Positions 13,320 to 60,203 are shown, counted from the stretch's first letter. The stretch: 64,000 nt of DNA from an uncultured Chloroflexia bacterium (GCA_963770875.1 CAVYRE010000001.1:148064-212063), one strand, 5' to 3'. The notes: generated by a model not told the origin, from the sequence alone. Program-made: numbers and translations.

Positions 13320-13482
13320 CACCCGCTTACGCCCAGCGTACGTACCTGCCAAGTTGGCGGGGTCGCCGCGCCACTGGACGCCGATCCGGATGGCGCCCGT
13401 GCTCACGGTGGCTCGCAGAACGGCCCGATCAACCCGCGCAGACTCCGTTCTTGGCCGTTCGTTACGCTGAGCGTAAGCGCGG
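13320..13482. repeat. REP/BIME-like composite palindromic element, locus 1
   Basis: TTACGCCCAGCGTACGTACCTGCCAAG ... ~95 bp ... CTTGGCCGTTCGTTACGCTGAGCGTAAGCG; same unit family as 7 other loci. Confidence 0.7.
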
Positions 13483-13501
13483 CGCCTGGGGGTTGCCGCC
13501 T

Positions 13502-14248
13502 TCAGCCGAGGAGGCGCTCCAGGTGGTAGGGGAGCATCTTCTGCCACCACGGCCAGTCGTGGTCCGCGTCGTGACCCCAGAAGTCGACGAACGCCGGAAT
13601 CCCCTTCGACGCCAGGAGCGCCTCCATGGCGTGCGCATCCACGATCATCTCCTCCTCCCAGCGTCCCTGCCCGACGCAGAGGGTGATCCGCGCTCGGCGA
13701 TACAGGGCGAGTCGCTCCGGATCCGACTCCCGGGCGAGGCGGTCGAGCGGTGAGAAGTCGATCGCCGGCCCGTCGCTGAACTCCCCGATGAAGCGGCGTG
13801 GCTGGTAGACGCCCGAGATCGCGATGAGGCCATCGACCTGCGCGGGGTAGCGGACGAAGAGGTTGCTGGCGTGGAAGGCGCCCATGGAGCAGCCCGCCGT
13901 CCAGGCCGTGACATGCCCCGTCTCTTCGCGCACCCGGGGGAGCAGCTCGGCGACGGCGTATCGGTCGAAGTCGGCGTGGCGCGCCACGCGCTCGTCCATC
14001 GCCTTTTCGGGCGCGGTCCATGACTGCCAGTCGATCCCGTCGCTGACGTAGAGGGTCACCCGCCCCGCCTCGATCAGGTGGCGAATCGACTCCACCATCC
14101 CGAAGTTCTCCCAGTCCCAGACCCGGCCGTTCATCGACGGGAAGGCAACGATCGGCTGTCCCGCCACGCCCCCGTCGGAGGTGTAGCGATACATCTCGAG
14201 GTCGTGCCCCAGGGCCGGGCTGAAGGTCAGGAACCGATCGGACCTCAT
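13502..14248 (-). CDS. esterase family protein (putative esterase / S-formylglutathione-hydrolase-like)
   Basis: Start MRSDRF... (ATGA overlap with ATP-grasp stop); GCSMGAF nucleophile elbow, HD..W C-terminus; upstream part of the 552-aa track ORF is junk. Confidence 0.75.
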   Translation of the reverse strand: MRSDRFLTFSPALGHDLEMYRYTSDGGVAGQPIVAFPSMNGRVWDWENFGMVESIRHLIEAGRVTLYVSDGIDWQSWTAPEKAMDERVARHADFDRYAVAELLPRVREETGHVTAWTAGCSMGAFHASNLFVRYPAQVDGLIAISGVYQPRRFIGEFSDGPAIDFSPLDRLARESDPERLALYRRARITLCVGQGRWEEEMIVDAHAMEALLASKGIPAFVDFWGHDADHDWPWWQKMLPYHLERLLG

Positions 14249-15411
14249 GCGTTGACCTTGATCTGGATGGCGCGCGCCGCGGCGGTCACCTTCGCCTCGT
14301 CGGGGTCCCGCAGGATGTAGCCGAAGTCCCCGATCGCCCGCGCGAAGATGCCCGCCATCGGGGTGTCCATCACGATCAGGTCGCCGAACTTGCCCATCAC
14401 CTGGCGGTGGCTGAGCTTGTAGGTGAACCGATCCTTCCGCCCGACGTAGGCGGTGGCGTAGGCCCGGCTGATCGGCTCGTCCCAGCGCCCGTGGACCACC
14501 ATCCGTGCCCAGCCCCGATAGAAGTTCAGGTCGTTGGCGTAGTTGAACATGTCGACGGTGAGGCCCCCCGGCGGTCGGACGTTGATTTCCAGCGGGACGA
14601 GGGAGCCATCGGGCAGGCGGAAGAACTCGAAGTGGAACGGCCGCTCCTTGAGGCGGAAGGTGCGCACGATCGCCCTGCCGGCCGCCTCGACGTCGGGGGG
14701 CACCTTGCGGGTGATGCAGTACCAGATGTCCCAGTCGTCGTTGACCGCCTCCATCACGCCAGACGAGTAGTAGAACGACGAGCCGAAGACGACCTCGCTG
14801 CGCCGATTGACCATCCCGTCGTAGGTGAGCAGCGTGCCGTGGAGGTACTCCTCCAGGATGTAGTCGACGCTCGGCTTGTCGGCCAGGAACCGTTCGAGGT
14901 CGTCGGGGTTCTCCAGCTTGTAGGTCGCTGCGGCGCCCACGCCCGCGTCCGGCTTGGCGACGATGGGGAAGCCGCACTCCTCGGCGAAGGCGCGGGTGGC
15001 GTGCGCGGAGCGGCAGACGCGGCCGCGTCCCGGGGTGAGCCCGGCCCGCACGAAGAGGCGCTTCATGAGCGACTTGCGCTTCATCCGCGCGATCTCGCCG
15101 ATGTTGATGCCAGGGATGTTGAAGTCGGTGCGGAGCCGCGCCTCCGTCTCGAGCCACCACTCGTTGAGGGAGTCGAGCCGGTCCAGCTTGCCGTGCCGAT
15201 GCGTGAACCAGGCCAGCGCCCGGAGGAGCTGGTCGTAGTCGCTCATGTCGTGGACCTGGTAGTAGTCGGTCAGCACGTCACGAAGCTCGGGGCGCAGCTC
15301 CTCGTAGGGCGCGTCGGCGATCCCCAGCACGGTGGCGCCCTGCTCCCGCAGGGCGGTCGCGAACAGGTACCAGTTCGGCGGGAAGTGCGGCGAGAGGAAG
15401 ACGACGTTCAT
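14245..15411 (-). CDS. ATP-grasp domain protein
   Basis: ATP-grasp core FPIVAKPDAGVGAAATYKL...YILEEYLHGT...; translationally coupled to esterase. Confidence 0.8.
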   Translation of the reverse strand: MNVVFLSPHFPPNWYLFATALREQGATVLGIADAPYEELRPELRDVLTDYYQVHDMSDYDQLLRALAWFTHRHGKLDRLDSLNEWWLETEARLRTDFNIPGINIGEIARMKRKSLMKRLFVRAGLTPGRGRVCRSAHATRAFAEECGFPIVAKPDAGVGAAATYKLENPDDLERFLADKPSVDYILEEYLHGTLLTYDGMVNRRSEVVFGSSFYYSSGVMEAVNDDWDIWYCITRKVPPDVEAAGRAIVRTFRLKERPFHFEFFRLPDGSLVPLEINVRPPGGLTVDMFNYANDLNFYRGWARMVVHGRWDEPISRAYATAYVGRKDRFTYKLSHRQVMGKFGDLIVMDTPMAGIFARAIGDFGYILRDPDEAKVTAAARAIQIKVNA

Positions 15412-15482
15412 GTGAGCGCGGAGTGTGCCGCGCCGGGGAGCGCCGCGGCAAGTGGCGAGCCCGTCGATGGGTGAGCGTGCAG

Positions 15483-15650
15483 CCGTTTACGCTCAGCGCA
15501 AGTAACGGACAAGAACGAGGCTTCTACCGGTGGTTGGAACCGCCATCCGGACCGTAGCCGTGCTCCCGCCAGGGTCGACCTGGCTCAGATCGACCCGGAT
15601 CCGGCCTGACGAGGGTCGAAGTTGGCCGTTATGTACGCTGGGCGCAAACG
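15483..15650. repeat. REP/BIME-like composite palindromic element, locus 2
   Basis: TTTACGCTCAGCGCAAGTAACGGACAAG ... ~100 bp ... TTGGCCGTTATGTACGCTGGGCGCAAACG. Confidence 0.7.
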
Positions 15651-15672
15651 ACGTGCAGCGGCGCTCCAGCTC

Positions 15673-18825: not shown

Positions 18826-19476
18826 AGGCCGCAGCTCCACCGGGGGTCCGTGTCTTCGTGGTCGACGACCACGAGCTGTTCCGTTCCGGCGTGCGCTCCG
18901 AGCTGAGCGCCAGCTGCGAGATCGTGGGGGATGCTGGGACGGTCGAGGAGGCGGTCGCTGGCATCGTGCAAGGCCACGCCGGACGTGGTGCTGCTCGACG
19001 TCCACATGCCCGGCGGCGGGGGGCGAGCCGTGATCGACGGGGTGCGGGCCGCCGGCGGCACGACGCAGTTCCTGGCGCTCTCCGTCTCGGACGCCGCCGA
19101 GGACGTGATCGGCCTGATTCGCGCTGGAGCGCGGGGCTACGTCACCAAGTCCATCTCCGCCGACGAGCTGGCAGCGGCGGTCCAGCGGGTCCACGGCGGC
19201 GACGTCGTCTTCTCGCCCCGCCTGGCGGGATTCGTGCTCGACGCCTTCGCCGGGGAGGCGCCCTTCCCGACCGACCCGGAGCTCGACCTGCTCACCGCCC
19301 GCGAGCGCGAGACGCTGCGCTACATCGCGCGCGGCTACACCTACAAGGAGGTCGCCGGCGAGCTGTCGATCTCGGTCAAGACGGTGGAGAGCCACGTCTC
19401 CGCGGTGCTGCGCAAGCTCCAGCTGTCGAACCGATACGAGCTGACCCGCTGGGCATCGGAGCGCCAGCTGATCTAG
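18822..19476 (+). CDS. LuxR/NarL-family response regulator (LiaR-like), apparent +1 frame disruption near 18965
   Basis: ATGA overlap with kinase; receiver N-term VRVFVVDDHELFRSGV... switches frame inside ...EAVAGIVQ|ARPDVVLLDVHMPGGGG (extra G in caaGGccacg); C-terminal LuxR HTH ERETLRYIARGYTYKEVAGELSISVKTVESHVSAVLRKL. Confidence 0.7.
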
Positions 19477-19504
19477 CGACCTGGGCTACAGCGGCGCAGG
19501 CGGA

Positions 19505-19668
19505 TTTGCGCCCAGCGCACGTAACCGCCAAGCAGGGGCCGATTGGCTGTCTCGCGCCGTCTCGCCGTGGCTCGAATCGCGCGGATTCGTGCTCAGACCT
19601 GCGGTCGCGACGCCGCGGAGGTCGTGCACGGCCGCTAACTTGGCCGTTACTTGCGCTGGGCGTAAATG
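19505..19668. repeat. REP/BIME-like composite palindromic element, locus 3
   Basis: TTTGCGCCCAGCGCACGTAACCGCCAAGCAG ... ~100 bp ... CTTGGCCGTTACTTGCGCTGGGCGTAAATGG, between convergent genes. Confidence 0.7.
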
Positions 19669-19783
19669 GAGGCCGCCGGCGCACGCCGACCTAGCGGAAG
19701 GAGATCCCGTCATGCGGGGAAGCGCGCCTGGATGCCCCAGCCGCCACGCGGCGGCGTCGAGGGGGACCGACTGCACTCGACGT

Positions 19784-21534: not shown

Positions 21535-22729
21535 CTACGCGAGGTGCGCGAAGTGCAGGTGCATGGCCCCTGCGACGCCCTTGAGCTCTACCGGCCCGAT
21601 CTCCCTGAAGGCTGCGGCGCTCCCCGCCGCGTCGACCACGGCCTGGCTGACGAGCACCTCGCCGGGGCGCGCGTACTCGGCGATCCGCGAGGCGACGTTG
21701 ACCACCTGCCCGTAGTAGTCGCCCTCCTGGAAGATCACCGGCCCTGCGTGCAGGCCCACGTGCGCGGGCGGCAGCCCGGCCCCGGCGAGCCCCGTCGACC
21801 ATCTCGAGTGCGGCGACCACGCCGGGTCCCGGGTCGGGGAAGTAGAACATCACCCCGTCGCCGAGCCACTTCACCGCGCGGCCGCCGTGCTGCACCGACG
21901 TGCGCTGCACGAGCCGTCCAAGCGTCGCCGCCAGGTCGGCCGCCGCCTCGTCGCCCCGCTCCTGCGTGAGGCGCGTGTAGCCGGTGATGTCGAGGAAGCA
22001 CATCGCCGGCGGGCGGTCGAGCCGGGAGTGCAGGCCGGCGCGCGCCAGGAGCGACTCGAAGGTGCCGATGATGTTGCCGGTCCAGGCGTGGGCCTGCTGG
22101 GCGTGATAGACCGCCATCAGGGACCGCTCCGACAGGGCGGTGATCTCGCTGGCGAAGTCGGTGGCCGAGATCTCCTGCGCATCCTTGCCGGCGGCCATCG
22201 CCGGCGCGATCACCTCGGACTGCCACCAATCGGCCTCCGTCTCGGCGATCCGGCGCAGGCTGTCGCCCTGGGCGCGCAGGAGGCGCTCGATGGCGATCGG
22301 CCGGAATCCTGCCCGGATCTGGGCCGCCACGAAGTCGGCGACTGCGACCTCTTCCTCGCGAACCAGGTCGTCGGCTGAAGGCATCGCGGCGCCGCCGACC
22401 TCGCGGATCAGGGTGAGGAGGTTGATCGGCACCCCGAGGCGTTCGGCCAGCTGATGGAACGTCACGTCGCCCAGCAGCGAGAAGCGTTCGTAGACCGACG
22501 CATCCAGGAAGTCCAGCGAGAGCGTGCCCTGCTGCATGGCCGACGCGAGTCCGTCGATCGGGATCCCGGCCGCCTCCAGGCTGCGGACCATCTCGGCCCG
22601 TCGCACGTCGCCGGCGCTGAACCGATCCCCATCGCCCGGCGTGACGATGCGCAGCTCGACCAGTCGGCCCAGCTGCTCGTCGGTCAATCCTGCGCGCGTG
22701 GCGGTCTCGGCGCGGGAGTAGTCAGGCAC
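21535..22729 (-). CDS. MerR-like HTH + class III adenylate/guanylate cyclase, frame disrupted near 21790 (paralog of 35148..36353)
   Basis: Near-colinear with 35148..36353 protein up to ...VVAALEMV then shifts (extra G in gacGGGGctc); remaining cyclase C-term in 21535..21759 ORF (MGLHAGPVIFQEGDYYGQVVNVASRIAEYARPGEV). Confidence 0.7.
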
Positions 22730-23995: not shown

Positions 23996-24091
23996 GCCGC
24001 AATTCTCGCGGCGCCGTGTGACAGCAGCGTGTCGCGGACGTTAAGGAGCCGATAACTGCGGCCCGGAGAGCGCAACGCCCCAGATCGCAGC

Positions 24092-24257
24092 CATTTGCGC
24101 TGAGCGTAAATAGCGGACAAGGAGCGGCTCCCAGGACGCCGGATTGGCCCAGTTCGAGGCCTTCGTTGGCTGCGGGCGTGCGCTGGGCGCAAATCTCAGC
24201 CAACGAGCGCCCACTTCGCGACCTTGCTTGGCCGTTACTTGCGCCCAGCGTAAGCGG
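24092..24257. repeat. REP/BIME-like composite palindromic element, locus 4 (three units)
   Basis: TTTGCGCTGAGCGTAAATAGCGGACAAG / TTGGCTGCGGGCGTGCGCTGGGCGCAAATCTCAGCCAACGAG / CTTGGCCGTTACTTGCGCCCAGCGTAAGCGG with unique linkers. Confidence 0.75.
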
Positions 24258-25098: not shown

Positions 25099-26725
25099 AT
25101 GACCGTCGCCGCGCCGCACGAACCTGCCTTCGACCGAGCCCCCATCGAGCTGCCCCACCGCGTCCGGATGGAGATCCTGGGCGCGGTGCTGCTGGGCATC
25201 CTGCTCGCCGCCCTGGACCAGACGATCGTGGGGACAGCTCTCCCCCGGATCGTCACCGACCTCAAGGGCAACGATGTCTACACCTGGGCCTTCACCGGGT
25301 ACCTGCTGACCGCCACAGCCTCTGGCCCGATCTACGGCAAGCTCTCCGACCTGTTCGGCCGACGCCCGATGTTCCTGACCGGGGTCGTCATCTTCCTGGT
25401 CGGCTCGGCGCTGTCGGGGCTCTCCCAGCAGATGTGGCAGCTGATCGCGTTCCGGGCGCTCCAGGGCCTCGGCGCAGGCGCCCTCTTCCCGATCTCGATC
25501 GCCATCATCGGCGACATCTTCAGCCCCTCGGAGCGAGGCAAGTACCTGGGCTTCTTCGGGGCCGTGTTCGGGCTCTCATCGCTCATCGGCCCGGCCATCG
25601 GCGGCATCCTGACCGATACCGTCGGCTGGCAGTGGATCTTCTACGTGAACATCCCGCTGGGCCTCGTCGTGCTCTACATCATCTGGCGCACGCTGCCGAC
25701 CGTCGTCGAGCCGGGGCTCAAGCGCAAGGTCGACTACCTCGGCGCCGCGACCCTGGTGGGCGCCCTCTTCCCGATCCTGATCGGCCTCACCAACAAGCAG
25801 TTCGGCGACTGGACCGATCCGCAGGTGGGCGGGCTGATCGCCCTGGGCCTGGCCTTCGCCGCGGTCTTCATCTGGGCCGAGTCGCGCGCGGATGAGCCGA
25901 TCCTGCCGCTCAAGCTGTTCCGCATCCGCGCCTTCACCGCGAGCGTCTTCGCCATCTTCCTGGCGGCGATGGGCTTCTTCACCGCCGTCGTCTTCCTGCC
26001 GCGCTGGTTCCAGGTCGTGGCGGGCGCCTCCGCCACCGAGTCCGGCTACCAGATCCTGCCGATGCTCGCGGGGCTGATCCTGTCGGCCACCATCTCCGGG
26101 CAGCTGGTCGCGCGGACCGGGCGCTACAAGGCGCTGATCGGGGCGTCGCTGCTGGTGCTGGCGGTCGGGCCTCTTCCTGCTCACCAACCTGCGCAGCGAG
26201 ACCGATCGGCCGCTGCTGTGGCTCTGGATGGCGGTCACCGGCCTCGGGATCGGGCCGTCGTTCGCCGTCTTCACGCTGGTGGTGCAGAACGCCGTGCCGG
26301 TCAACGAGCTGGGGGTCGGGACGAGCAGCATCACGCTCTTCCAGCAGGTGGGCGGGACCGTGGGCCTGGCGATCACCGGCTCGATCTTCGGCTCGAACCT
26401 GCTGGCCGAGATGCCCAGGCAGATCGCCGCCAAGGGGGTCCCGGCGGAGCTGGCCGACCAGTTCGCCCAGGGCGGGGGAGCGGCGCTCAACAACCTGTCC
26501 GGGGTGGGGGACCTCGGCACGGCGATCCTCGCCCAGGTGCCCGCCGCGCAGCACGACCAGGTGGCGCCGCTCATTCCGGCGATCGTGTCGGGCATCCACG
26601 AGGCCTTCTCGCTGGCCATCGCCTCGACCTTCAGCGTGGGGATCGTGACGGCGCTGCTCGCCGCGGCGATCGTGTTCACGCTGATGCCGCGCGGGAAGAT
26701 CGGGGAGGGACCAGCCAGCTCCTGA
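25099..26725 (+). CDS. MFS transporter, DHA2 (EmrB/QacA) family, frame disrupted near 26172
   Basis: 14-TM-type MFS; two track ORFs (..26170 and 26228..26725) are colinear parts of one protein; junction LLVLAVG|LFLLTNLRSE needs removal of one base from gtcGGGCctc. Confidence 0.75.
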
Positions 26726-26745
26726 GGCGCCTCGTCGGGCGCCTG

Positions 26746-26903
26746 GGATTTGCGCTGAGCGTACATAACGGCCAAGCAGCCGCTCTTCACCGCCCGTTCC
26801 GAGGCCCTTGTTGGCTGCCGTATGCGCTGGGCGCAAATCTCAGCCAAGCAGAGCCAGTCCGGCGACCGTTCTTGGCCGTTATTTGCGCTGGGCGTAAGCG
26901 GGA
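26746..26903. repeat. REP/BIME-like composite palindromic element, locus 5 (three units)
   Basis: GGATTTGCGCTGAGCGTACATAACGGCCAAGCAG / TTGGCTGCCGTATGCGCTGGGCGCAAATCTCAGCCAAGCAG / CTTGGCCGTTATTTGCGCTGGGCGTAAGCGG. Confidence 0.75.
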
Positions 26904-27182
26904 ATGATCGGGGCGTTGTCGAATCCTTACCGACCCGTTGAGGTTGGCTTGTCCTTCCGGGCCGATGCTGGCGCCATGATCGAACGATACGAGCGAATCA
27001 GCGACTCGGACGACCTGCCCAGCGTGCCCCTGCACACCATGCCCCTGCGCGGCGCATCGCTGCCGTGCGCCGCGTGTGGCCGGCCGGCGGCGTCGTGGGC
27101 CTACGCGGTCAGCATTGCCGACGATGGCAGCCTGGTCGTCGACGGCCGGTCCGTGTGCGAGGCGCATCGGGCCGCTGCCTGA
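26904..27182 (+). CDS. small hypothetical protein (paralog of 23593..23793)
   Basis: Conserved leader plus N-terminal peptide; D.DDLP...T.P.L shared with paralog. Confidence 0.35.
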   Translation: MIGALSNPYRPVEVGLSFRADAGAMIERYERISDSDDLPSVPLHTMPLRGASLPCAACGRPAASWAYAVSIADDGSLVVDGRSVCEAHRAAA

Positions 27183-27278
27183 TCCGGGCAGGTCGGGGCG
27201 GGTCGAGGCCCGCAGCGTGCCTGCGTGCACTCGCGTGCACTCAGCGTGGACGGCAAGGGGCGCCGCTAGACTGAGCCG

Positions 27279-27734
27279 ATGGTTGCCTGGGACGACTTCG
27301 CGACGGCCGCCCCGGAGCTGGCCGCCAAGGGTCGGCGCCTCTTCGAGCGGCGCGGCGACGGCGAGGCGCTCCTCGCGAGCGTGCGGGGCGACAACCCGCC
27401 GCGGATCCACCCCATCAACGTTGCGATCGTGGGAGGACGGCTGCTCGCCTTCGTGATCGTCGGGTCGGCCAAGGTGGCGGACCTGGCCGGCGACGGCCGA
27501 TACGCCCTCCACGCCCACCAGGACCCCGCCGAGCCGCACGAGTTCCAGGTCCGCGGCCACGCCCGCGAAGTGACGGATGCAGCTACGCGCGCCGCCGTCG
27601 CAGCGGCCTGGGCGTTCGAGGTGGACGACGGGTATCGGCTCTTCGAGTTCGGGATCGAGCACGCCATCTTCGGGGAGCGCGCCAGCGCCGACGACTGGCC
27701 GCCGGTCTACACGTCATGGAGGGCGAAGCCGTGA
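27279..27734 (+). CDS. pyridoxamine 5'-phosphate oxidase-family (PPOX/F420-type) FMN-binding protein
   Basis: Split-barrel PNPOx-like pattern IHPINVAIVGGRLLAFV. Confidence 0.65.
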   Translation: MVAWDDFATAAPELAAKGRRLFERRGDGEALLASVRGDNPPRIHPINVAIVGGRLLAFVIVGSAKVADLAGDGRYALHAHQDPAEPHEFQVRGHAREVTDAATRAAVAAAWAFEVDDGYRLFEFGIEHAIFGERASADDWPPVYTSWRAKP

Positions 27735-28129
27735 GCGACGAGAACAAGGCGCTCGTGCGGCGCTTCATCACCGAGATCTTCGAGCAGGGGCGCGTCGAGG
27801 CGATCGACGAGCTGTGCGCCCCCGACTTCATCGGCCATACCTGGGGCAACGCCGACCGCGCCGGCCTCAAGCAAGCCATGGCCCGCGTCGCAACGGCCTT
27901 GGCCGATGCCCATTTCGAGATCGACGACATGATCGCGGAGGAGGACCGCGTGGCGGTTCGCCTCACCGCCACTGCGCGACAGGTGGGGGAGTTCATGGGC
28001 GTGCCGCCCAGCGGGCGCAGCTACACGATCGGCGAGATCCACATCTTCCGGTTGCGAGACGGCAAGGTCAGCGAGCACTGGCACGAGTTCGACCGCACCG
28101 GACTGATCAAGCAGCTCAGCGAGAAGTAA
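27716..28129 (+). CDS. SnoaL-like/ester cyclase family protein
   Basis: LVRRFITEIFEQGRVEAIDELCAPDFIGH...HWHEFDRTGLIKQL. Confidence 0.65.
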   Translation: MEGEAVSDENKALVRRFITEIFEQGRVEAIDELCAPDFIGHTWGNADRAGLKQAMARVATALADAHFEIDDMIAEEDRVAVRLTATARQVGEFMGVPPSGRSYTIGEIHIFRLRDGKVSEHWHEFDRTGLIKQLSEK

Positions 28130-28278
28130 CCCTCGCGGGACGGGACCTTGGTCATTGACCAATGGCTCTGGACCCCCTGGCCACTCCACCCGATCATGCC
28201 TGAGCGCGCCTGCGCGCTGACAGATACAGGTGGCGGCCGGGGCCGCTCGGCCTGGGGGGCAGACCAGCGGTATCCCGC

Positions 28279-28737
28279 TTGCATGCCACCGGAAAGGCGG
28301 CAGCCGGAATGACTGCCGTTCTCGAAGTCCTCACCACGGACGACCTGACGATCGCCCGGTTGATGGAGGTCTACAAGGGGGCGTACATGGGCGCGGAGAT
28401 CGGCGCCGATGGGGACATCAAGCTCGACATGGAAGGGCTGAAGGTCTTCGTCAAGGTCGAGCCGATCAAGAAGATCCTGCGCCTGTACTCGCTCTTCGGC
28501 GCAAAGCCCGGGACGACGCGTTCGCAGATGCTCGAGCTGTGCAACCGCATCAACGACGGGCTGGTCATGCTGCGGGCGTCCTGCCCGGCGGCCCTGCCGC
28601 AACCGGCGCTGTGGCTCGATCACGACCTCGACACCGAGGCGGGCCTCTCCGCCGTCGAGATCGTCGAGGAGACCCGACGCTTCCGGACGATCTTCGCGAA
28701 CATCCCGCCGCTCGACACCGACCACATCCTGGCCTGA
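28279..28737 (+). CDS. YbjN-like domain protein
   Basis: 152 aa, alpha/beta small protein; start may be the internal ATG at ~28309. Confidence 0.55.
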   Translation: MHATGKAAAGMTAVLEVLTTDDLTIARLMEVYKGAYMGAEIGADGDIKLDMEGLKVFVKVEPIKKILRLYSLFGAKPGTTRSQMLELCNRINDGLVMLRASCPAALPQPALWLDHDLDTEAGLSAVEIVEETRRFRTIFANIPPLDTDHILA

Positions 28738-28825
28738 GACCCTGCCAGGGCGCCGGGCGGTCTGCGAAGGCCGCTCGGCCCACCCTCAACGTCTTCTCGC
28801 CTTGCGCGGGGTAAGGTTCGCGCCG

Positions 28826-29992
28826 ATGCGCGTCCTCTTCACCTCCTTGCCCCTGGTCGGCCACTTCAACTCGCTGCTGCCCGTGGCGCGGGCAACCGCG
28901 GCGGCGGGGCACGAGGTCGCGGTCTGCTGCGCCCGGCTCTTCGCGGATCAGCTCGCGCGCGCCGGCCTCCAGCACCTCCCCGGCGGAGCGGACGAGTGGG
29001 CCGCTCTGGACGGCCGATGCGCCACCGCAGGGCGACCCGCGGCGCAACCGGTTCATGCAGCGCCGGGTCTTCGGCGAGCGCGCGCCGCTGCGGATGATCC
29101 CCGACCTGCTCGCGCACGCCGAGGCGTGGCGCCCCGACGTCATCGTCCGGGAGAACGGGGAGTGGGCGGGCTGCCTCGTGGCGGAGAAGCTCGGCCTGCC
29201 GCACGCCTCGATCGGGTCAGGCTCGATGAGCGGCCGGGACGAGCGGCGATCGCTCTTCGCCGAGCCCATGTCGGTGCGACGCGCGGAGCTGGGCCTGCCG
29301 GACGATCCTGAGGGGCAGATGATCTTCCGCTACCTCCACCTCGCCTTCACCCCGCCCGGCTGGGAGGGCGACGACGCCCGTCCCGCCACCGCGCACTACA
29401 TCCGCTACGACAACCCCGCAGCGGCCGGGCGAGACACGTCCGTCCTGGCTCGACGAGCCGCGCGACCGTCCCGCTCGTGCTGGCCAGCCTGGGGACGCTC
29501 ATGCACGACCTGCCGGGGCTCTTCGAGGCGATCGTCGAGGCGGTCGCGGATGAGCCGATCGAGGTCGTGGCAGCCATCGGCCGGGACCAGGACCCGGCCC
29601 GCTTCGGCACCGCGCCGGCGAACGTGCGGATCGAGCAGTTCGTGCCGCAGATCCAGGTACTGGCCGAATGCGCGCTCTTCGTGACGCACGGTGGCTTCAA
29701 CTCCACCAAGGAGGCGCTGCGGCTGGGGATCCCACTGGTGGTGACGCCGATCGGCGGGGACCAGCCGTACACCGCGCAGCGGGTGGAGGCGATGGCCTGG
29801 GCCGTGCGGTGGGGCCGACGAGCGCGACCCGGTGACGATCCGCGCGCGGGTGCGCGAGGTGCTCGCCGAGCCGCGCTATCGGGCCACGCGCAGGCGTTCT
29901 CCGCGGAGATGCAGGCGCTGCCGCCGATGGCGCACGCGGTGGAGTTGTTGGAGCAGCTTGCCCGCGACCGGCAGCCAATTGTTCGTCCCTGA
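28826..29992 (+). pseudogene. UDP-glycosyltransferase (MGT/macrolide-GT-like) with about four frame disruptions
   Basis: MRVLFTSLPLVGHFNSLLPVARA..., ...PDVIVRENGEWAGCLVAEKLGLPHASIG..., ...LVLASLGTLMHD..., ...HGGFNSTKEAL...GIPLVVTPIGGDQPY..., C-term AEPRYRA...AFSAEMQALPPMAHAVELLEQL distributed over 3 frames. Confidence 0.65.
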
Positions 29993-29996
29993 ACGG

Positions 29997-30155
29997 ATTT
30001 GCGCTCAGCGTCAATAACCGCCAAGCAGTGATGCGGGATGGGCTATTTCGGGTCCGTCGTTGGCCGTGACTTGCGCTGAGCGCACGTATCAGCCAAGCAG
30101 AGCCCGATTTGCCGCGCTTCTTGGCCGTTATTGACGCTGAGCGCAAACGAGCGGA
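29997..30155. repeat. REP/BIME-like composite palindromic element, locus 6 (three units)
   Basis: GGATTTGCGCTCAGCGTCAATAACCGCCAAGCAG / TTGGCCGTGACTTGCGCTGAGCGCACGTATCAGCCAAGCAG / CTTGGCCGTTATTGACGCTGAGCGCAAACG. Confidence 0.75.
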
Positions 30156-30182
30156 GGACCGGCCACGCGGTAGGCTTGGGCC

Positions 30183-31559
30183 ATGACGATGACGAACAGC
30201 ACCGACCCCCTCGCCACCTTCACCGCCGACATCGCCCCGCGACCCATCCCCGCGGCGCTCCTCGCCGCCCGGCGCGACGTCATGGCGGCGGTGCGAGACC
30301 TCGCCACCCTCACCGATGCGGACCTCGCCACGGAGTGGGCCTGGACGGGCGGCAGCGAGGACGAGATCCGCTACGGCTTCTATCGGATCTACGAGGACTT
30401 CGAGCGCGCCGGCATCGATGCCGCGGCGGCGGTCCGCGCGGCGGGCAGCGACCGAGGCAGAGCGGCAGACCTGATCGCCCCGGCCACCGCCGCCCGATGG
30501 GACCTCCAGGGGATCCTGCTCCAGCTGCCGGACGCGGCCTGGGACGCGGATCCGGGCGGCGAGGAGTGGACCATGCGCCAGACGCTCGGCCACGTCATCG
30601 GCGGCCAGCGCGGCTATGGCGCGGCACACCGCCTGGTGGCAGGCGCAGGGGCTCCCGGCCAATGACGACCTGCCCAAAGGTGCGCCCTCCGTTCTGGGCG
30701 GAGCTGCCGGAGGACGAGGAAGAGGGGGCGGGCACGCCGGCCGAGGTTCGTGCCCGTCTCGACGAGCTCCTCGACCAATCCACCGAACGGCTGGCCGGCC
30801 TGCCGCCCGAGCGCCTCGCGCATCGGCACGCGCTGGGCTGGCTTCGCGGTGGACATCGGCTTCCGGATCGGCCGATGGTCGTCGCACCTCCGGGAGCACG
30901 CCATCCAGGTCGAGAAGACGATGGTGATGATCGGGCATACGCCCACGGAGGTGGACCGATTGATCCGCCTGATCCTCGCCGCGTGGGGCCAGGCGGAGGC
31001 CGTCGTCTACGGCTCGACCGGCGCCGACGAGGCGATCGCTGTCCTGGCGAGGGCCGCTGCCGAAGCAGGCGACACAGCTTCGGAGCTGATCCGGGTGGCA
31101 ACTCCTTCGCCCGCTCCGGCTCCGCCTCCTGCTGCCGCCCCTCCGCCCGTGACGCACGATGTCGAGCGGCTGCGTGCCTTCGCGGAGCGATACACGGCGG
31201 CCTGGTGCAGCATGGACCCGACCCGCGTGGCCCAGCACTTCGCTCCGGGCGGGTCGCTGACGATCAACGACGGCCCGCCGGCGATCGGTCGCGCGGCCAT
31301 CACCCAGGCGGCCAACGGCTTCTACGTCGCGCTGCCGGACATGCAGGTCTACTTCGACGACCTGGTGCTCGACGGCGACCGCATCGAGTACCACTGGACC
31401 TTCACCGGCACGAACACCGGGCCGGGCGGCACCGGCAAGCGGGTGCGGGTCAGCGGGTTCGAGGAGTGGACGGTCGACGACCACGGGCTGATCTCCACCT
31501 CGCAGGGCCACTACGACGCCGCCGAGTACGCGAGGCAGCTGGAGCACGGGATCGACTGA
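30183..31559 (+). pseudogene. DinB_2-like N-terminal domain fused to SnoaL-like C-terminal domain, >=2 frame disruptions (30640-30860)
   Basis: TLGHVIGGQRGYGAAH (frame 1), WWQAQGLPANDDLPKG / PFWAELPEDEEEGAGTPAEVRARLDELL (other frames), then SnoaL-like VTHDVERLRAFAERYTAAW...YHWTFTGTN. Confidence 0.5.
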
Positions 31560-31623
31560 CCCGACGTCGGCGAGAGTGTGCTAGCCTGTGCGCACATATC
31601 TGCACACTTCAGGAGACGGCCCG

Positions 31624-40732: not shown

Positions 40733-42685
40733 TCAAGAATCCCCACGAGAATGAGCCCAACTGCCCCGACAACGCCCAACCAGCTCCGTCCCAGCGGAAG
40801 TTCGTAGGACGACCGTGATACTCGCGACGAGGATCAGCGGAGTAATTGCCCAATAGACTGCGGCGCCAATCCAACCAGCCCAACGGCGGGCGCGGCCGTC
40901 AATCTCGAGGTCATGGCGCCTAAGCGCTTCAATCGCGTTCGTAGCGGCAGCCTCGGCACTTGCGGTCTTCAGGTCGGCCTCTGCGCGAAGCGCATTGATG
41001 CGCACTTCATAGCTTGCGCCTAGCTCGTCGAGCTCAAAGTCCGCGCGTGCCTTGTAATCGGCGATGACTCGGTCGACGACCTCATCAAGCGTGCCCGCGT
41101 CCACGTCTTCCGGGTCGTCGTCGGGTTCTGCGGTGCGAAGGATCCTGTCCGAGACACTGGAGACGATAATTGCTGTCACCTGGTCGGGTGACAATCGATC
41201 TGCCTTGCGTAATTCATCAAGGTGCGCGAGGAATCGCCTCCACATCCTCGCCGAGGGTCGCATGGCCGCGGAGCAGAGAGCCACCAGCTGGCGGATTTGG
41301 TACTCGGAGCTCGCCACTGGCCTCTTCAGCCATGCAAGGTTGGCGAGTGCTCGAATGTGGACAATTGGGGGGACGCCCCCCTCCTTCTCGTCCTCCTCCC
41401 ACCAAACCGTTGTGTTCGTAATGACAAGGGGCGACGCGGTGGCAAAGACTACCCTCGCATCTTCAATTCGATAGGAACGGTGGCCCGCACGGAGGGTGAG
41501 CACTCCTGCAACAGAATCGACATCGTGTTCGACCCGAGGCTCCGCGATGTCATGTGTTCGTGGATCAGCTAATCGGCTTGCGAGCTTGGCTTCATCTTGT
41601 GTGTATCGAGCGACGTGTTGTGGCGCACGCCTGATGGTTAACCCCGCGGATTGAATCTCGCCTTCAAGCAACGCAGACATTTCCTGAACGTCGCTTGGCG
41701 CGTACCGTTGCGTCAGGAAATGTCGAGCCATTGACGAAGGACGAAGACTTTGTCGGCCGACCGAGGTGGCCAACTTGTCCTGGTACATCCGCAGAATCCG
41801 TTGGATCTCCTGCACGGTCTTATCGAACACCATGCAACGGATGCCGCTCGCCGCAAGGAGATCAATCGTGTCGCGCATCATCAGCCGCGGCGCAGTTCCT
41901 TCATACCCAAGCGCCTGACGCACTAGAACGGAGTCAAATACGACCGTCAGATCGACAAATCGGCGTGAGACCTCGTTGATGTCTGGCAGGAATGCGGCGT
42001 GGTAGAGGACGAGACCTTCGAGTAATCCCTGCAAGACTCCCTTGAGGCCGCGGTCCTGCTCAACCGTCTCCTCGAGGAACTGCGCAACCAGTAACGACTC
42101 GGATTTGCTGAGACCGGGCACCTCATGCTCCTCGGTCACGCCAAGAATGAGCGAAACCTGATGCTCCTCGAGGAAACGGAAAATAAGGTCGAGGGCACTC
42201 TTGGCTGTGTGCTCTAGCGTCGCGTGCTTGCGAACGTGCTCCGCAAGGGCGGCTCCTAGGCGAAGCTGCCCTGCCTCGACTGCCGCCTTGGTTTCCGAGA
42301 CATCCGGGGCCGAGAGGTCCTTGCCCGGACTGACCCTGAACCTCCCCGCATCTCTCTCTAGAATCCCGCGCCGAGCGGCGCGTTTCAGAAGGGTGCTGAC
42401 AGTCTCTTGTGGCATCGCAATGCCGTGACGGGCGGCGACCCCCTCCTGGATATCCGCGACCGTGAAATATCGACTTGGTTCGACCGACACCGCATCGAGG
42501 ACCAACGGCGAGAACATGCCAAGCTGGTCCTCCCCCTCGTCCAATCGCGCCTTAAGGAATGCCACAGTTACGAGTCCGCCGGCGCCCACGCTTGGTTTCC
42601 TCTCGGTCATCGGCCGAGCCTCACCGGTGAGGTCATTCCGTTGCTCCCGGTGAGCTTCGCTCGTTATCCGGTCATCCTCATTCAT
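40733..42685 (-). CDS. large (650 aa) uncharacterized protein with C-terminal hydrophobic helix; partner of Mrr-like nuclease
   Basis: Start MNEDDR overlaps upstream stop (GATGAATGA); lower GC/codon bias; wH-like stretch FTVADIQEGVAARHGIAMPQETVSTLLKRAARRGIL; no P-loop; C-term WAGWIGAAVYWAITPLILVASITVVL. Confidence 0.7.
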   Translation of the reverse strand: MNEDDRITSEAHREQRNDLTGEARPMTERKPSVGAGGLVTVAFLKARLDEGEDQLGMFSPLVLDAVSVEPSRYFTVADIQEGVAARHGIAMPQETVSTLLKRAARRGILERDAGRFRVSPGKDLSAPDVSETKAAVEAGQLRLGAALAEHVRKHATLEHTAKSALDLIFRFLEEHQVSLILGVTEEHEVPGLSKSESLLVAQFLEETVEQDRGLKGVLQGLLEGLVLYHAAFLPDINEVSRRFVDLTVVFDSVLVRQALGYEGTAPRLMMRDTIDLLAASGIRCMVFDKTVQEIQRILRMYQDKLATSVGRQSLRPSSMARHFLTQRYAPSDVQEMSALLEGEIQSAGLTIRRAPQHVARYTQDEAKLASRLADPRTHDIAEPRVEHDVDSVAGVLTLRAGHRSYRIEDARVVFATASPLVITNTTVWWEEDEKEGGVPPIVHIRALANLAWLKRPVASSEYQIRQLVALCSAAMRPSARMWRRFLAHLDELRKADRLSPDQVTAIIVSSVSDRILRTAEPDDDPEDVDAGTLDEVVDRVIADYKARADFELDELGASYEVRINALRAEADLKTASAEAAATNAIEALRRHDLEIDGRARRWAGWIGAAVYWAITPLILVASITVVLRTSAGTELVGRCRGSWAHSRGDS

Positions 42686-43547
42686 CGACAAGGATGTCCG
42701 CTGGTTCACGAGCACTCACGCGCCGCTCGTACGTTGCATCAATCGCATTGAGAAGGTCGAGGACACTGACCCCAGCCTCGATGGCCAGGCGAGCCATGAT
42801 TTCTCCAACTTGTCGCCCGGCTACCAGAAGGATGGGGTACCCATCGTCCTGAAGCTCTCGTTGGGCTTGAAGGGAGAAGTGACCAGTCGTAACGAAAACG
42901 CCCACCCAGCCTCGATCCAGCTTCGCCGCGAGCCTCGATAATTCGGCGACACCGCTCGCCCCCGCCTGGCATTTCGCCTGCCCGGCTACGACGATTCGCA
43001 GCGGAACTGAGCTACTCCCCAGGTCAAGTCTTCCTACAAAATCGATGCCGCGGTCGCCTGAACCTCGGCTTACCCAGCCCAACCGATACAGACCGGCATG
43101 CTCGAATGAGGCCTGCGCGACCCGCTCTGCGACCGCCTCAAACCGGCTCTTTGGCCGGTTGGCATAGAAGGCGATTGTCGTTCGGAGCGCTCCCTCGGCC
43201 GTCGACCCGGCAAGCGGCCGCTGATCGCTCTCAGACAAAATCCTGTAGCTGAGGAGGCGTTGGCGAACCTGGGCCAGCGACGCTGTGCCGCGGTCAATCC
43301 ACTGCCTCCAGGATTTGGGCGCTAGCACTAGGGTCTCGGTCAGCGTTCTTGTGGAGTCTCGGCGAGCTGCGACCCACGTCCAATCGAGCAGATTGTTCTC
43401 AGAGGCGAGGCTGAGAAGTGCGCAGTCGTATCGGTAGTTGACAAACGGTCGGCCGTGCCGGTCCACTTGCACCACGCGCTCGACGCGGTCCACTAAGCCA
43501 ACTCCTCGGAAGCGGCGGTAGCCCTTAGCGCGATTCTCTTGAATCAC
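42678..43547 (-). CDS. Mrr-type PD-(D/E)xK restriction endonuclease-domain protein with unassigned N-terminal region
   Basis: C-terminal half ...GDRGIDFVGRL...RIVVAGQAKCQ...GVFVTTGHFSLQAQRE matches Mrr_cat D/(D/E)xK layout; GTG start; upstream frames open. Confidence 0.7.
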   Translation of the reverse strand: MIQENRAKGYRRFRGVGLVDRVERVVQVDRHGRPFVNYRYDCALLSLASENNLLDWTWVAARRDSTRTLTETLVLAPKSWRQWIDRGTASLAQVRQRLLSYRILSESDQRPLAGSTAEGALRTTIAFYANRPKSRFEAVAERVAQASFEHAGLYRLGWVSRGSGDRGIDFVGRLDLGSSSVPLRIVVAGQAKCQAGASGVAELSRLAAKLDRGWVGVFVTTGHFSLQAQRELQDDGYPILLVAGRQVGEIMARLAIEAGVSVLDLLNAIDATYERRVSAREPADILVDE

Positions 43548-43999
43548 GCTCTCGAAGAAGATAAGTGGGCACGCCCGTCGCCTGTCTCGGTGTCTCCTGA
43601 GGCCGAGAGGTCAAACTGATCCAGGATCGCGCGGTTTCCTGGCGTTCGATCGGGGTTCTCACTTAGGCCGGGCTTGTTGTCACCGTAGTAGCGGACGAAA
43701 CCGTTTCGCGGGTCGATCTCATCGTGCCACGGGGTCCAGTCCTATCCAGCCTTGTGCGGATTGATACCAATCAAGATTGCCGGGCGGCGCGGCCCATCCG
43801 CCGCCGAGACCACGGTAATCGCGTCGATGCCCTTCTCGAGTTGCGCCCTCCCGCATTCTTGAGCCCCGGCCACTGTGGCCACCGCGTCGCCGCGAAGAAG
43901 CTCTCCAGCTCACCCTCAGATCGCTCAGCGATCTGCTCAGGGGCGGGCTTCGGGTACCGGTAGGTGTCATGCAGTCGCAGCACCGTGGCACTCTTCGAC
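43548..43999 (-). pseudogene. degraded coding remnants at right edge of islet
   Basis: Fragmentary frames (…WTPWHDEIDPRNGFVRYYGDNKPGLSENPDRTPGNRAILDQFDL…) interrupted by stops; may be the lost 5' part of the Mrr-like gene. Confidence 0.3.
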
Positions 44000-44915
44000 C
44001 TAACGAAGGAATCGCTCCGACGCATGCCACTCGAGAAATGCGGGATTAGGTCGAGCCTGCGGATCAACCGGCAGGCCTAGCGGTCGACCGGCGAGCGCGT
44101 AGTAGTCGCGACCGTTCTCATAGTCCTCACGGATGCGGCGACTTACTACGACCTGCATGTTTGAGCTTACGCCAAGTATCCAGCGTCGAACAGAGCATGG
44201 ACGTCCTTCCGCAAGAAGCAGGCCATTGTCAAGGCGATGCTCACCGTGCTGGGCGTAGGGCATGATGTGAGCGGCATCGAGGGCGGGTAGGGTCCGCTCG
44301 GCCGTCATGGCGCATCGGCGCTCGTAGGCATCTGTGACGGCGATGCGGAATCCGCCTTGGCCTAGCCGTGGGGCGATCAGTACCGGCGTGCCGTATCGAT
44401 CCTCGGCGATCCTGATGGCGCGAGGCTAGCAGCCGCACCCGACACCTCACGCCACACCCTGGCGCCGATCTGCATCGGCATCGCTGTACGTCTTGCCCTG
44501 GACGATGTTCGGCGCCCAGTCCTCTGGCGGCCGGACCCATCGCTCACGCGGCAGGAAGAATGGCCGGTTGAGGATCATGCAGCCGATCTCGTCGTGGGTG
44601 GCAATGATCGGCTCCTGCCTGTAGCGCTGGACGCGCGTGAGCATCTCCTCTGCGTCGCCGCCCCGTTCTTCTCCTCGAATGCTTCCCACGCGAGGTAGAT
44701 CGGGACCTTCGGTGAAGGGCCGAGCGACAAGCCACCGCCGACGAGGAACCCTCCGTCGCGAGGCGTGGAGCTTGAATAGGAAGGGGGCACCGGCAGGTAA
44801 GGGTCACCGGCGCGCGCCGAGCGCTTGGCTGCCAGAAGTTGACCTCGTCAAGATCCGGGCGCGCCGCTAGAAATCGATACCAGTCGCAGTCGGTGATTCC
44901 GATCCAGAACCGCAT
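44000..44915 (-). pseudogene. HNH endonuclease family gene with >=2 frame disruptions
   Basis: N-part MRFWIGITDCDWYRFLAARPDLDEVNFWQPS, middle YRQEPIIATHDEIGCMILNRPFFLPRERWVRPPEDWAPNIVQGKTYS, C-part LPALDAAHIMPYAQHGEHRLDNGLLL (HNH motif) in three different frames. Confidence 0.55.
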
Positions 44916-58453: not shown

Positions 58454-58645
58454 GAGCTGCCTGAAGCGCCGCTGCCGGGCGTCGCTCGCCGTTGCCCGTG
58501 AGGTCACGTTCATTTAGGGATGCTAGGGGGTAGTTTTGTGCGGTTAGGTGTGGTAGAAGAACTGCCTCACGTCGGCGTCAGAAAGCGGGGCAGCGTTCGC
58601 GCGAACCCGAGGTTCGGGTTCGCAGCATTGCGAGGGACGTATCGA

Positions 58646-59128
58646 ATGACACCGAGATCACTTCACAGCGCCGTGCTGGAGGTGGGCCTCTACTACGAGA
58701 AGCGCTGGACGGTCGACGAGATCGCCCGATTCACCTTTCGACTGAAGCGTCGCCGGCTCCGCGCCGAGAAGCGGGAAGCTCGAGCGCGCCGGGCTGCGAG
58801 GCCGATCCCGCTCCGCGTCGCCTACCAGATCGGGCCAGGTGGAAGCCGACCCGAGGCCCAGGTTCCGGTCATGACACAGGCCGATGCGCGGAAGGCCAAC
58901 CAGCGGCTGCTCGAGCGCGTCCGGGCCCAGCTCAGCCGGCGACTGATGCGCGCCGCGGAGAAGGAGCGCATCGACCTGCCATGCCTCGTGTGCGGGAGGC
59001 CCGCCACCGGCTGGACCTACCTGAGCCGTCATCACAACAACGTGCTCGCCACCGACGCATACGCCACCTGCGGCGCACACCGCTCGGAGGAGTCCGTGAA
59101 GCAGCTCGCGGGGACCGGCGCGCGATAG
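58646..59128 (+). CDS. hypothetical protein with C-terminal Cys/His cluster
   Basis: ORF preceded by AT-richer stretch; ...LPCLVCGRPATGW...ATCGAH. Confidence 0.35.
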   Translation: MTPRSLHSAVLEVGLYYEKRWTVDEIARFTFRLKRRRLRAEKREARARRAARPIPLRVAYQIGPGGSRPEAQVPVMTQADARKANQRLLERVRAQLSRRLMRAAEKERIDLPCLVCGRPATGWTYLSRHHNNVLATDAYATCGAHRSEESVKQLAGTGAR

Positions 59129-59161
59129 GACCTGCCGAGAGGCGTGCCCAGCTGCACCACC

Positions 59162-60082
59162 TCAGCGGGCAGAGCTGCCCTCGGCCCAGCGCAGCACGCG
59201 CATGGCGCGCAGCGTGTTCCATCGGCTCGGCCCGTCCTCGGCCTCCATCTCGAAGTGCACAGCTCCGGGGTAGGTGAGCTCGAGCAGCCAGCGCCCGTCC
59301 GCTTCACGCTTTCCCCGCAGCAGCTCGATCGCCTCCGTCACCCGCTCGTCCGGGGTGACGTCCGCGGCGCGGAGGTAGTCGAGCCCGCGGAGCACGTCGT
59401 AGTGCCAGCGGCCCGGGAACGCGAATCGTAGCCAGACGCCGGTGTTCGGCTCGATCACCTCGCCGGTGGAGAGCCGGCGGAAGAGGCGGCGGTCGAGGAT
59501 GTACTCCTGTCCGCGGAGGCGCGCGGCGGTCACGGCCGGGTCGGGTCCAACGGCCCGCTCGTACTCCAACAGCCCTTCCAGCACGTTGATGCTCGAGTCG
59601 AAGGAGCCGCGCACGGAGCCGCGCTCCTGCTCGCAGTTCCACCCGCCGTCGGCCATCTGGTCGTTGAGGAGGCGGTCGACGATGCCCTTCACGTCCTGTC
59701 CGAAGTAGGCGCCGATGGCCACGGCCTGGCCATTGATGCATGGCTCCACCTCGCCGTCGAAGAAGCGGAGGTTGTCGTACTCCCAGCGGGCGTTCTCGGC
59801 GACGAGCGCGACCGCGCGGCGGGCCTGGTCGCTCGCCGGGTCGAGGCCCATGCAGCGCAGGAGCGCCAGGGTGTTCGTGGTGGAGGTCCACTCCGGGAAG
59901 TAGGTGCCGCCGCCCCACTGGCCGTCCGCCGCCTGGAGCGCGAGGAGCTGCGCGCCCCACCCTTCCGTGGCGACCTTGGCGCGCTCCGCCGCGACGACCT
60001 CGGCCGGCTCGTCGGTCAGGTCGCGCATCACCTGCCAGCGGATCGAGGGGTCGGCGTCGAGCAGCCACTCGAGAACGGTCAT
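59162..60082 (-). CDS. hypothetical protein (alpha-helical repeat, possibly alpha/alpha-toroid fold)
   Basis: 306-aa ORF with W/D/G-rich repeats reminiscent of terpenoid-cyclase/prenyltransferase-like toroids. Confidence 0.5.
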   Translation of the reverse strand: MTVLEWLLDADPSIRWQVMRDLTDEPAEVVAAERAKVATEGWGAQLLALQAADGQWGGGTYFPEWTSTTNTLALLRCMGLDPASDQARRAVALVAENARWEYDNLRFFDGEVEPCINGQAVAIGAYFGQDVKGIVDRLLNDQMADGGWNCEQERGSVRGSFDSSINVLEGLLEYERAVGPDPAVTAARLRGQEYILDRRLFRRLSTGEVIEPNTGVWLRFAFPGRWHYDVLRGLDYLRAADVTPDERVTEAIELLRGKREADGRWLLELTYPGAVHFEMEAEDGPSRWNTLRAMRVLRWAEGSSAR

Positions 60083-60165
60083 CGGCTCACTCCGGTGGGG
60101 GTTGGGGAGTGTCTCATCGTAGGGGCGCCCGTTTGGAGGTCCTCGGGGCCTGGCGCCGGATGTTA

Positions 60166-60203
60166 CTTGGCCGTTACGCGCGCTGAGCGCAAATCTGCGG
60201 CCG
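60166..60203. repeat. solo REP-like palindromic unit (family A)
   Basis: CTTGGCCGTTACGCGCGCTGAGCGCAAATCTGCGGCC. Confidence 0.6.

Follow-up and report, generated by a model that had tools for sequence, protein, structure and literature searches.

A REP/BIME/REPIN-like family of triple-palindrome repeats spaced in helical steps in Chloroflexota

In this study, we analysed a stretch of 64,000 nucleotides from an uncultured Chloroflexia bacterium (GCA_963770875.1, CAVYRE010000001.1:148064-212063; hereafter the window, about 70% G+C and with no tRNA), in which eight loci carry copies of one palindromic repeat, beside genes that include a PspC/histidine-kinase/LuxR operon and genes for SnoaL-domain proteins, MFS permeases and DinB-family proteins. 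An earlier note, made from the sequence alone, had likened these copies to repetitive extragenic palindromic (REP) sequences and bacterial interspersed mosaic elements (BIMEs). What is known of REPs, BIMEs and REPINs (pairs of inverted REPs that evolve together as a hairpin-forming unit) comes almost wholly from Proteobacteria; the present family would extend it to the Chloroflexota, with a structurally distinct repeat in a host class that is uncultured and abundant in soil and freshwater. We found no published description of these repeats in the open-access literature, including work on repeats of the Limnocylindria, a class of Chloroflexota, and with respect to that literature they are an undescribed REP/BIME/REPIN-like family. 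What is new is a quantised triple-palindrome architecture in an unstudied host lineage; the REP/BIME type of repeat is already known. The copies in the window, with bounds set at the feet of the terminal hairpins, are as follows.

Element 1, 13323-13480, plus strand: 158 bp, CGTGCTC-middle subfamily; flanked by a minus-strand gene that stops at ~13503 and by a Lactamase_B gene that starts at 13261.
Element 2, 15483-15651, plus strand: 169 bp, CGTGCTC-middle subfamily; upstream of an ATP-grasp gene (14245-15411, minus strand) and 23 bp past the stop, at 15673, of a gene for a SnoaL-domain protein.
Element 3, 19502-19669, plus strand: 168 bp, CGTGCTC-middle subfamily; 27 bp past the stop of a LuxR-type response regulator gene (18931-19476).
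Element 4, 24091-24257, plus strand: 167 bp; hairpins at 24095-24109, 24178-24192 and 24239-24253, centre spacings 83 + 61 bp; convergent genes on either side.
Element 5, 26746-26901, plus strand: 156 bp, the best preserved copy; hairpins at 26750-26764, 26822-26836 and 26883-26897, centre spacings 72 + 61 bp; feet TAACGGCCAAG at 26766-26776 and CTTGGCCGTTA at 26871-26881; starts 21 bp past the stop of an MFS permease gene.
Element 6, 29995-30150, plus strand: 156 bp; hairpins at 29999-30013, 30071-30085 and 30132-30146, centre spacings 72 + 61 bp; terminal arms (29998/30117) 94% complementary over 31 nucleotides in a repeat search; starts 4 bp past the stop of a glycosyltransferase-like open reading frame (ORF).
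Element 7, 40055-40210, plus strand: 156 bp; hairpins at 40059-40073, 40131-40145 and 40192-40206, centre spacings 72 + 61 bp; starts 13 bp past the stop of a DUF2283 ORF.
Solo unit, 60164-60203, plus strand: foot CTTGGCCGTTA and hairpin CGCGCGC-TGA-GCGCAAA in right-end orientation, the other arm decayed.

All eight loci lie within a few bases of where the earlier note had placed them, and its unit consensus, its layout of half unit, full unit and half unit, and the intergenic position of every window copy proved correct. The similarity that it asserted is also well beyond what base composition gives: the window holds 21 matches to CTTGGCCGTTAC at up to two mismatches against 2.5 expected, 8 matches to TTGGCCGTTA-N4-CGC-N3-GCG against 0 expected, and 18 matches to TTRCGC-N3-GCGYAA at up to one mismatch against 0.6 expected. 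The repeat family is real and far above chance.

An element measures 156-169 bp in the window and 145-177 bp across the family, and reads, in order, hairpin, foot TAACGGCCAAG, linker, a middle hairpin with a foot on each side, linker, inverted foot CTTGGCCGTTA, hairpin. Each of the three hairpins has an 8-bp stem, a 3-nucleotide loop and an invariant top CGC-YSR-GCG; the foot is 11 nucleotides long, and terminal units keep only the inner foot where the middle unit has both. Aligned in one register, 129 distinct terminal units gave the consensus R-NNNN-CGC-YSR-GCG-NNNN-T-AACGGCCAAG, in which the CGC, GCG and TAACGGCCAA positions are conserved at 90% or more, as is the foot CTTGGCCGTTA, with GCCG at the position of the REP tag GTAG. 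Flanking CGC and GCG, four to five stem positions per side vary and yet remain complementary (one pair occurs as GC 49, AU 40, GU 11 and CG 5 times, another as GC 53 and UA 38 times). In these 129 units, 86.6% of stem cells are paired against 75.9% in shuffles (none of 500 reached the observed value), and the covariation score is 0.379 against 0.204 in shuffles and at most 0.125 for slid partners, with the reservation that the copies are related to one another and shuffle controls overstate significance. The middles at 13, 15 and 19 kb, which had been taken for degenerate, share the CGTGCTC motif with L112, L114 and L158 (L-numbered loci are the contigs compared with the window, roughly 0.8 Mb fetched in all); since copies in other genomes have it in common, these middles represent a subfamily and not random decay.

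The two ends of an element are not independent of each other. Their inner half-stems are identical at 74.6% against 40.4% in shuffles (z = 11.4) and their outer half-stems are concordant (z = 8.7), whereas their central triplets are uncorrelated (63.6% against 63.1% in shuffles, z = 0.2); because the triplets vary freely while the half-stems agree, the triplets are true loops and the local hairpins are real. The stems of an element's two ends evolve together. Furthermore, half-stem agreement among the three hairpins of one element is 2.79 of 4, compared with 1.90 of 4 with another element on the same contig and 1.65 of 4 with other loci, and each element therefore carries its own stem "flavour". 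Hybrid hairpins exist, for example with an outer TGTG half and an inner CTCC half, and in these the inner halves of both ends still match. Pairing selection between units, template switching or gene conversion are possible causes of this sharing inside one element. Structure prediction gives the whole element one long hairpin, the middle unit forming its tip (folding z against shuffles of -2.3 to -3.3 as RNA and -6.5 as DNA). No target-site duplication is visible in 66 copies.

The linkers were described in the earlier note as differing between loci, which stands for their sequence; their lengths, however, fall into discrete classes. They carry the weak motifs TTCGRGSC and GGCCAAA but otherwise show no sequence conservation. 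Linkers of paralogous copies are homologous at 68-72%, and those of an equal length class are almost unalignable. Among 112 distances between consecutive hairpin centres, the classes are 51 bp (3 cases), 61 bp (36), 71-72 bp (27), 81-83 bp (25) and 93-94 bp (3); element lengths cluster likewise at 145, 155-156, 166 and 176-177 bp. A Rayleigh scan of the centre spacing peaks at a period of 10.5-10.9 bp (R = 0.85). A/T-rich positions recur at about 1, 10, 20, 31, 41, 51 and 61 bp from a hairpin centre, linkers included, and the element adjacent to imuB has spacings of (61, 82) in most lineages and (61, 61) in two, an in-place change of exactly 21 bp. Such phasing is as expected if the palindromes must share one face of double-stranded DNA. 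From the phasing and the A/T periodicity we conclude that the element, as a double strand, is most likely also bent or wrapped by a bound protein, which could be the transposition complex itself or a host factor such as gyrase or integration host factor (IHF) by analogy with E. coli, where IHF binds BIME-1 and gyrase binds BIME-2. Both the helical phasing and the stem sharing within elements had been missed in the earlier note, and they go beyond the standard picture of REPs and their REP-associated tyrosine transposases (RAYTs). The quantisation at ~10.5 bp offers a data set on repeats read as protein-wrapped double-stranded DNA besides folded single strands, a matter that is still open for BIMEs.

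With respect to genes, each of the eight window copies, by inspection, follows a stop codon at a distance of 4-36 bp, and none of them lies between divergent genes. Over all loci most measurable distances from stop to element are 7-36 bp, about half of the elements having no such upstream gene by crude gene calls. Several of these positions are occupied in more than one genome: the site next to the ATP-grasp gene in the window (element 2), L029, L106 and L143, and the DUF6582/ACT-domain intergene in the window (element 4) and L126 (1964-2119). The site after the LuxR regulator has element 3 in the window, a decayed copy in L068 and a solo unit in L163, and the site of element 1 has no element in L029, where the orthologous spacer is 27 bp, and a small ORF in its place in L106. 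Presence and absence therefore do differ between relatives at some orthologous sites, a comparison proposed in the earlier note. The spacer between an imuA-like gene (RecA fold) and an imuB-like gene (Y-family polymerase) holds one or two tandem elements in at least ten lineages (L075 4559-4901 and L045 395-718, and also L125, L160, L172, L184, L169, L185, L120, L149, L150 and L170), which places repeats within a presumed SOS-mutagenesis operon. Copy number at orthologous sites differs, with one copy or two, and so do the stems of orthologous copies, which are either replaced or evolving in concert.

Relatives tend to lose shared gene order at the elements. The association with toxin-antitoxin (TA) and pseudogene loci mentioned in the earlier note is weak: the sole TA pair found, an RHH antitoxin and PIN toxin pair at 31588-32248, is 1.4 kb from the nearest element. 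This pair is kept in L068 (2950-3575) in a different neighbourhood, where it directly follows two elements, and across relatives the gene blocks of this region have been rearranged, elements standing where the blocks meet. As to strand, the longer linker comes first in four of the four well-preserved window copies, the CGTGCTC motif is on the plus strand in all three window copies of its subfamily, and four element pairs on other contigs are also co-oriented, which hints at a strand bias. The co-orientation of seven window copies in nhmmer is circular, the model having been built from them, and was not used.

The family extends beyond the window. A loose-pattern scan of genome contigs returned mostly chance matches, and true copies were sorted from them with a hidden Markov model built from seven window copies; among the matches listed, the full-length ones were only on Chloroflexota/Limnocylindria contigs from metagenome-assembled genomes and on L112, binned as Steroidobacteraceae. 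A stricter pattern matched 77 soil or sediment metagenome contigs and no viral contig. From the listed genome matches and the metagenome contigs we collected a sample of 71 full elements, 69 of them distinct; metagenome units nearly always occur as a plus/minus pair 120-145 bp apart, that is, as a full element. In at least ten cases the end of a metagenome contig falls within a copy, which is typical of high-copy repeats; the elements interrupt metagenome assembly and mark the points at which synteny is lost. REPs number more than about 100 copies per genome; the window has 7.5 in 64 kb, and the hundreds of genome-wide copies in the earlier note are an extrapolation. The window's proteins share 77-90% identity with their counterparts on repeat-bearing Limnocylindria/Chloroflexota contigs, and the homologues of one flanking protein are annotated as Chloroflexota or Candidatus Limnocylindria at 75-93% identity at most; two window proteins had no exact counterpart on record. 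Three other Limnocylindria-like contigs (54 kb in total) have no elements, and the family is accordingly lineage-restricted within the Limnocylindria. Orthologues of the MFS gene beside element 5 lie on contigs with neither shared synteny nor elements and offered no clean empty site.

The elements are themselves targets of another mobile element. In two independent sources, a 1290-bp insertion sequence (IS) of the IS110 family (Pfam DEDD_Tnp_IS110 and Transposase_20) is inserted in an element between TAACGGC[CA] and AG, at L167 125-1414 and at L068 ~5560-6850 (minus strand). Its recombinase has 343 amino acids, the transposases of the two copies are 95% identical, and CTAACGGCCAGG in its left end resembles the target-matching guide of a bridge RNA. 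IS110-family elements use such a bridge RNA and have REPs among their known targets, as with IS621 and the 11-nucleotide foot ATCAGGCCTAC (PMC11208160). Relatives of this IS, 78% identical, stand at the equivalent place of a sister repeat family (L199-L203), between TAACTA[CG] and AAS; over the sister families as a whole (L199-L203, L197 and L204) IS110 relatives are 75-89% identical, the L199 copy lying at ~873-2159. In the sister family the hairpins read GTGCAC-NNN-GTGCAC and the feet include CTTCGTAGTTA and CTTGGTAG, with GTAG, the canonical REP tag (PMC3733652), at the position of the window family's GCCG (e.g. in L199 and L202). Its spacings by hand count are (81, 51), (71, 61), (71, 51) and (71, 72). 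A third variant (L197 and L204) has the foot TAATGGC[CA], also given as TAATGGCCA; in L197 only one spacing (82) fitted. The 51/61/71/81-bp spacing that L199-L203 have in common with the window family suggests a wider superfamily together with natural re-targeting of the IS. The repeats are natural landing pads for IS110 bridge-RNA recombinases, and related IS copies with different targets form a natural series of bridge-RNA re-targeting.

Set beside known systems, the family comes closest to REPs and their composites. Its palindromes are stem-loops repeated in extragenic DNA, as are REPs, which are imperfect palindromes of 20-40 nucleotides; its units alternate in orientation, as in BIMEs, where a small set of conserved linker motifs separates them; and its two inverted ends evolve as one unit able to form a hairpin, as in REPINs. 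The GTAG or CGTC foot tag of REPs (PMC3733652) is missing from the window family. The structural and behavioural definition of REP, BIME and REPIN largely applies and the GTAG tag does not. The likeness to BIMEs claimed in the earlier note is in this way supported for architecture and behaviour, and its link to RAYTs is not, there being no RAYT in the scanned ORFs and no GTAG tag. As in the REPs and BIMEs of E. coli, which consist of the palindromic units Y, Z1 and Z2 with linker motifs, extragenic alternating hairpins are joined by linkers into a composite element that lies after genes and inside operons without target duplication, and an IS110-family IS targets the conserved hairpin foot (IS621; PMC11208160). 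Unlike those, the window family has a fixed layout of three hairpins with half units at the ends, the 11-nucleotide foot TAACGGCCAAG in place of GTAG, the top CGC-YSR-GCG, spacing in ~10.5-bp steps, a Chloroflexota host and no RAYT found.

The REPIN-RAYT systems of Pseudomonas and Enterobacteria (PMC3116915, PMC5581495) share with it two inverted units that co-evolve and can form a long hairpin, vertical persistence at orthologous sites and lineage-specific sequence variants. The key distinctions are the third, central palindrome, the highly diverged linkers in place of a tight sequence cloud, a stem that is private to the element and not to the genome, and the defining single-copy RAYT gene flanked by its cognate REPs, which was not found in the parts searched. 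Similarly, the GTAG and CGTC REP superfamilies and the terminal inverted repeats of TIRYTs (PMC3733652) are stem-loops with a short foot tag that occur as dimers and clusters, and class 3 TnpA-Y1 goes with CnGA-footed hairpins (PMC6006769). The sister family of L199-L203 resembles the GTAG superfamily in having GTAG at the tag position, in contrast to the window family, which has GCCG within a longer conserved foot.

Our favoured interpretation, which we consider probable though by a modest measure, is that these are non-coding repeats of the REP/BIME/REPIN kind, non-autonomous and moved in trans as folded single-stranded DNA, their double-stranded form being bound by protein as well. The element would be a non-autonomous mobile unit recognised as folded single-stranded DNA by its hairpin and conserved foot; a structure-specific HUH/Y1 enzyme of the RAYT type would copy or move it in trans without target duplication; and insertion would be preferred just downstream of stop codons and followed by long vertical persistence. 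We infer mobilisation by such an enzyme from the REP/REPIN-RAYT and IS200/IS605 systems, and, given the sister family with GTAG, we consider an enzyme of the RAYT type the foremost candidate.

Several observations weigh against this interpretation. No Y1/RAYT gene or other candidate mobilising enzyme stands beside any copy looked at, and the 11-nucleotide foot lacks GTAG and CGTC, in contrast to REPs with demonstrated RAYT cleavage. If the mechanism were purely single-stranded, helical phasing would have no role in it. Finally, the relatedness of the copies inflates the comparison of their stems with shuffles, and stem covariation in DNA palindromes can also come from template-switch correction without selection.

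The search for an enzyme covered the Pfam-scanned ORFs of the window (~40 over roughly 12.5-49.8 kb and three near 59-63 kb), which include no Y1/RAYT, integrase, cas gene or DDE transposase. PF01797 had no match in the ~40 window ORFs or in 18 ORFs of other loci, which are small parts of the genomes concerned, and tblastn with RAYT/IS200 queries, with motif scans, gave only spurious matches over the ~0.8 Mb of loci, a weak test. Three candidates were set aside. The 306-amino-acid protein at 59162-60082, beside the solo unit, has no Pfam match and no HUH/Y1 motif by eye, and is not a transposase candidate. Unit matches 5.2 kb apart in L061, considered as the ends of a larger element, enclose ordinary ORFs. 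A 251-amino-acid ORF in L154 has no Pfam match and no transposase motif by eye; it lies between near-identical direct repeats of an element's right-hand ~80 bp (1880-1960 and 2895-2980), and recombination between repeats may have captured or duplicated this gene.

A different possibility, one that we take seriously without thinking it likely, is that the window family and its sisters are not ordinary RAYT-driven REPs but form an undescribed superfamily of phased triple palindromes, assembled and kept as a double-stranded nucleoprotein array by a novel recombinase or wrapping protein that homogenises the hairpins within each element, with IS110 bridge-RNA elements repeatedly re-targeted to the foot of each variant. 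Such a superfamily may comprise at least three variants in Chloroflexota, with different feet and hairpin cores and the same 51/61/72/82-bp spacing.

The helical phasing can also be read without any mobility of the repeats' own. They could be cis-acting elements of chromosome structure belonging to the host, with three in-phase palindromic protein sites behind transcription units (for example a strong gyrase site or a site wrapped by a nucleoid protein), spread and homogenised mainly by recombination or gene conversion and not by a dedicated transposase, an explanation that we judge unlikely. It would account for spacing quantised at ~10.5-10.9 bp despite diverged linkers and for the A/T clusters at ~10-bp intervals; the outer centres lie 122-164 bp apart, a span that matches the segment wrapped by gyrase, as known from gyrase footprints and from work on BIME-2 and gyrase; the position after stop codons is where positive supercoils accumulate; and the elements persist for long at orthologous sites. 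It leaves unexplained, however, the origin of dozens to hundreds of dispersed copies, stem bases that vary yet stay complementary, and the keeping of only the inner feet in terminal units. A chromosomal role of this kind is compatible with our favoured interpretation of a REP-like mobile repeat, as a secondary, domesticated function.

The position 4-36 bp past stop codons is also what would be seen if the elements acted in RNA, their hairpins serving transcripts that enter from either side as stabilisers of 3' ends, processing sites or terminators independent of a U-tract, and the DNA repeat being maintained for that function. When the stems are read from the outside in, G·T mismatches outnumber A·C mismatches by 117 to 40, a bias expected if that strand folds; the predicted folds are more stable than shuffles, and copies inside the imuA-imuB operon recall the REPs in malE-malF. 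Nevertheless, a single closing pair beside the conserved TAAC contributes much of the G·T excess, and the 10.5-bp steps in spacing would have no reason. No Rfam family matched at gathering score across the whole window, or at E ≤ 1 over 26650-30250, which spans two elements, and the elements have neither a U-tract terminator nor a sigma-70 promoter. We therefore regard a primary role in RNA as improbable.

With a length of 145-177 bp, terminal inverted repeats of ~31 nucleotides and many dispersed copies, the elements also have the outline of classical miniature inverted-repeat transposable elements (MITEs), deletion derivatives of a DDE-type IS that would be recognised through 31-bp terminal inverted repeats. 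Correia/NEMIS and ERIC-type MITEs are likewise intergenic elements of 100-160 bp with terminal inverted repeats and size classes; they form long hairpins when folded and are transcribed together with the genes beside them. They have, however, target duplications (TA for Correia) and conserved interiors, where the window family has no duplication and diverged interiors with three internal palindromes in helical phase. Of the features that define a MITE (terminal inverted repeats, target duplication and a related autonomous IS) only the inverted ends are present: the 66 copies show no duplication, the outermost bases are the most variable in contrast to a conserved inner foot, no fetched locus was found to hold a parent IS with such ends, and the only IS found, of the IS110 family, is inserted into the element and has unrelated ends. 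A MITE origin is thus very improbable.

Integron cassette sites of the attC type or a CRISPR-like mini-array, suggested by imperfect inverted repeats directly after ORFs in one orientation in the window, by synteny that breaks at the elements and by linkers variable in sequence and fixed in length, are largely refuted and have hardly any standing left, as the scanned window ORFs include no integrase (intI) or cas gene, the RYYYAAC/GTTRRRY sites of attC are missing (reading the sequence shows no R'/R'' consensus GTTRRRY), adjacent elements are separated by multi-gene blocks of 2-10 kb with ordinary genes on both strands and not by single-ORF cassettes, paralogous linkers are 68-72% homologous and so are not acquired spacers, and the terminal units are half units.

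Two further features of the window are not part of the repeats. Directly after element 7, G+C falls from ~0.70 to ~0.62 (40220-44500), in a stretch that encodes a 660-amino-acid protein without Pfam match (40733-42715, minus strand) and an Mrr/AspBHI-like restriction endonuclease (42678-43547, minus strand) and is probably a horizontally acquired defence islet. In addition, two stretches of ~1.1 kb, 21545-22667 and 35164-36291, are 71-86% identical and 13.6 kb apart; each is part of a paralogue from a large cyclase/DUF6582-type family, which is the commonest gene family near elements at other loci.

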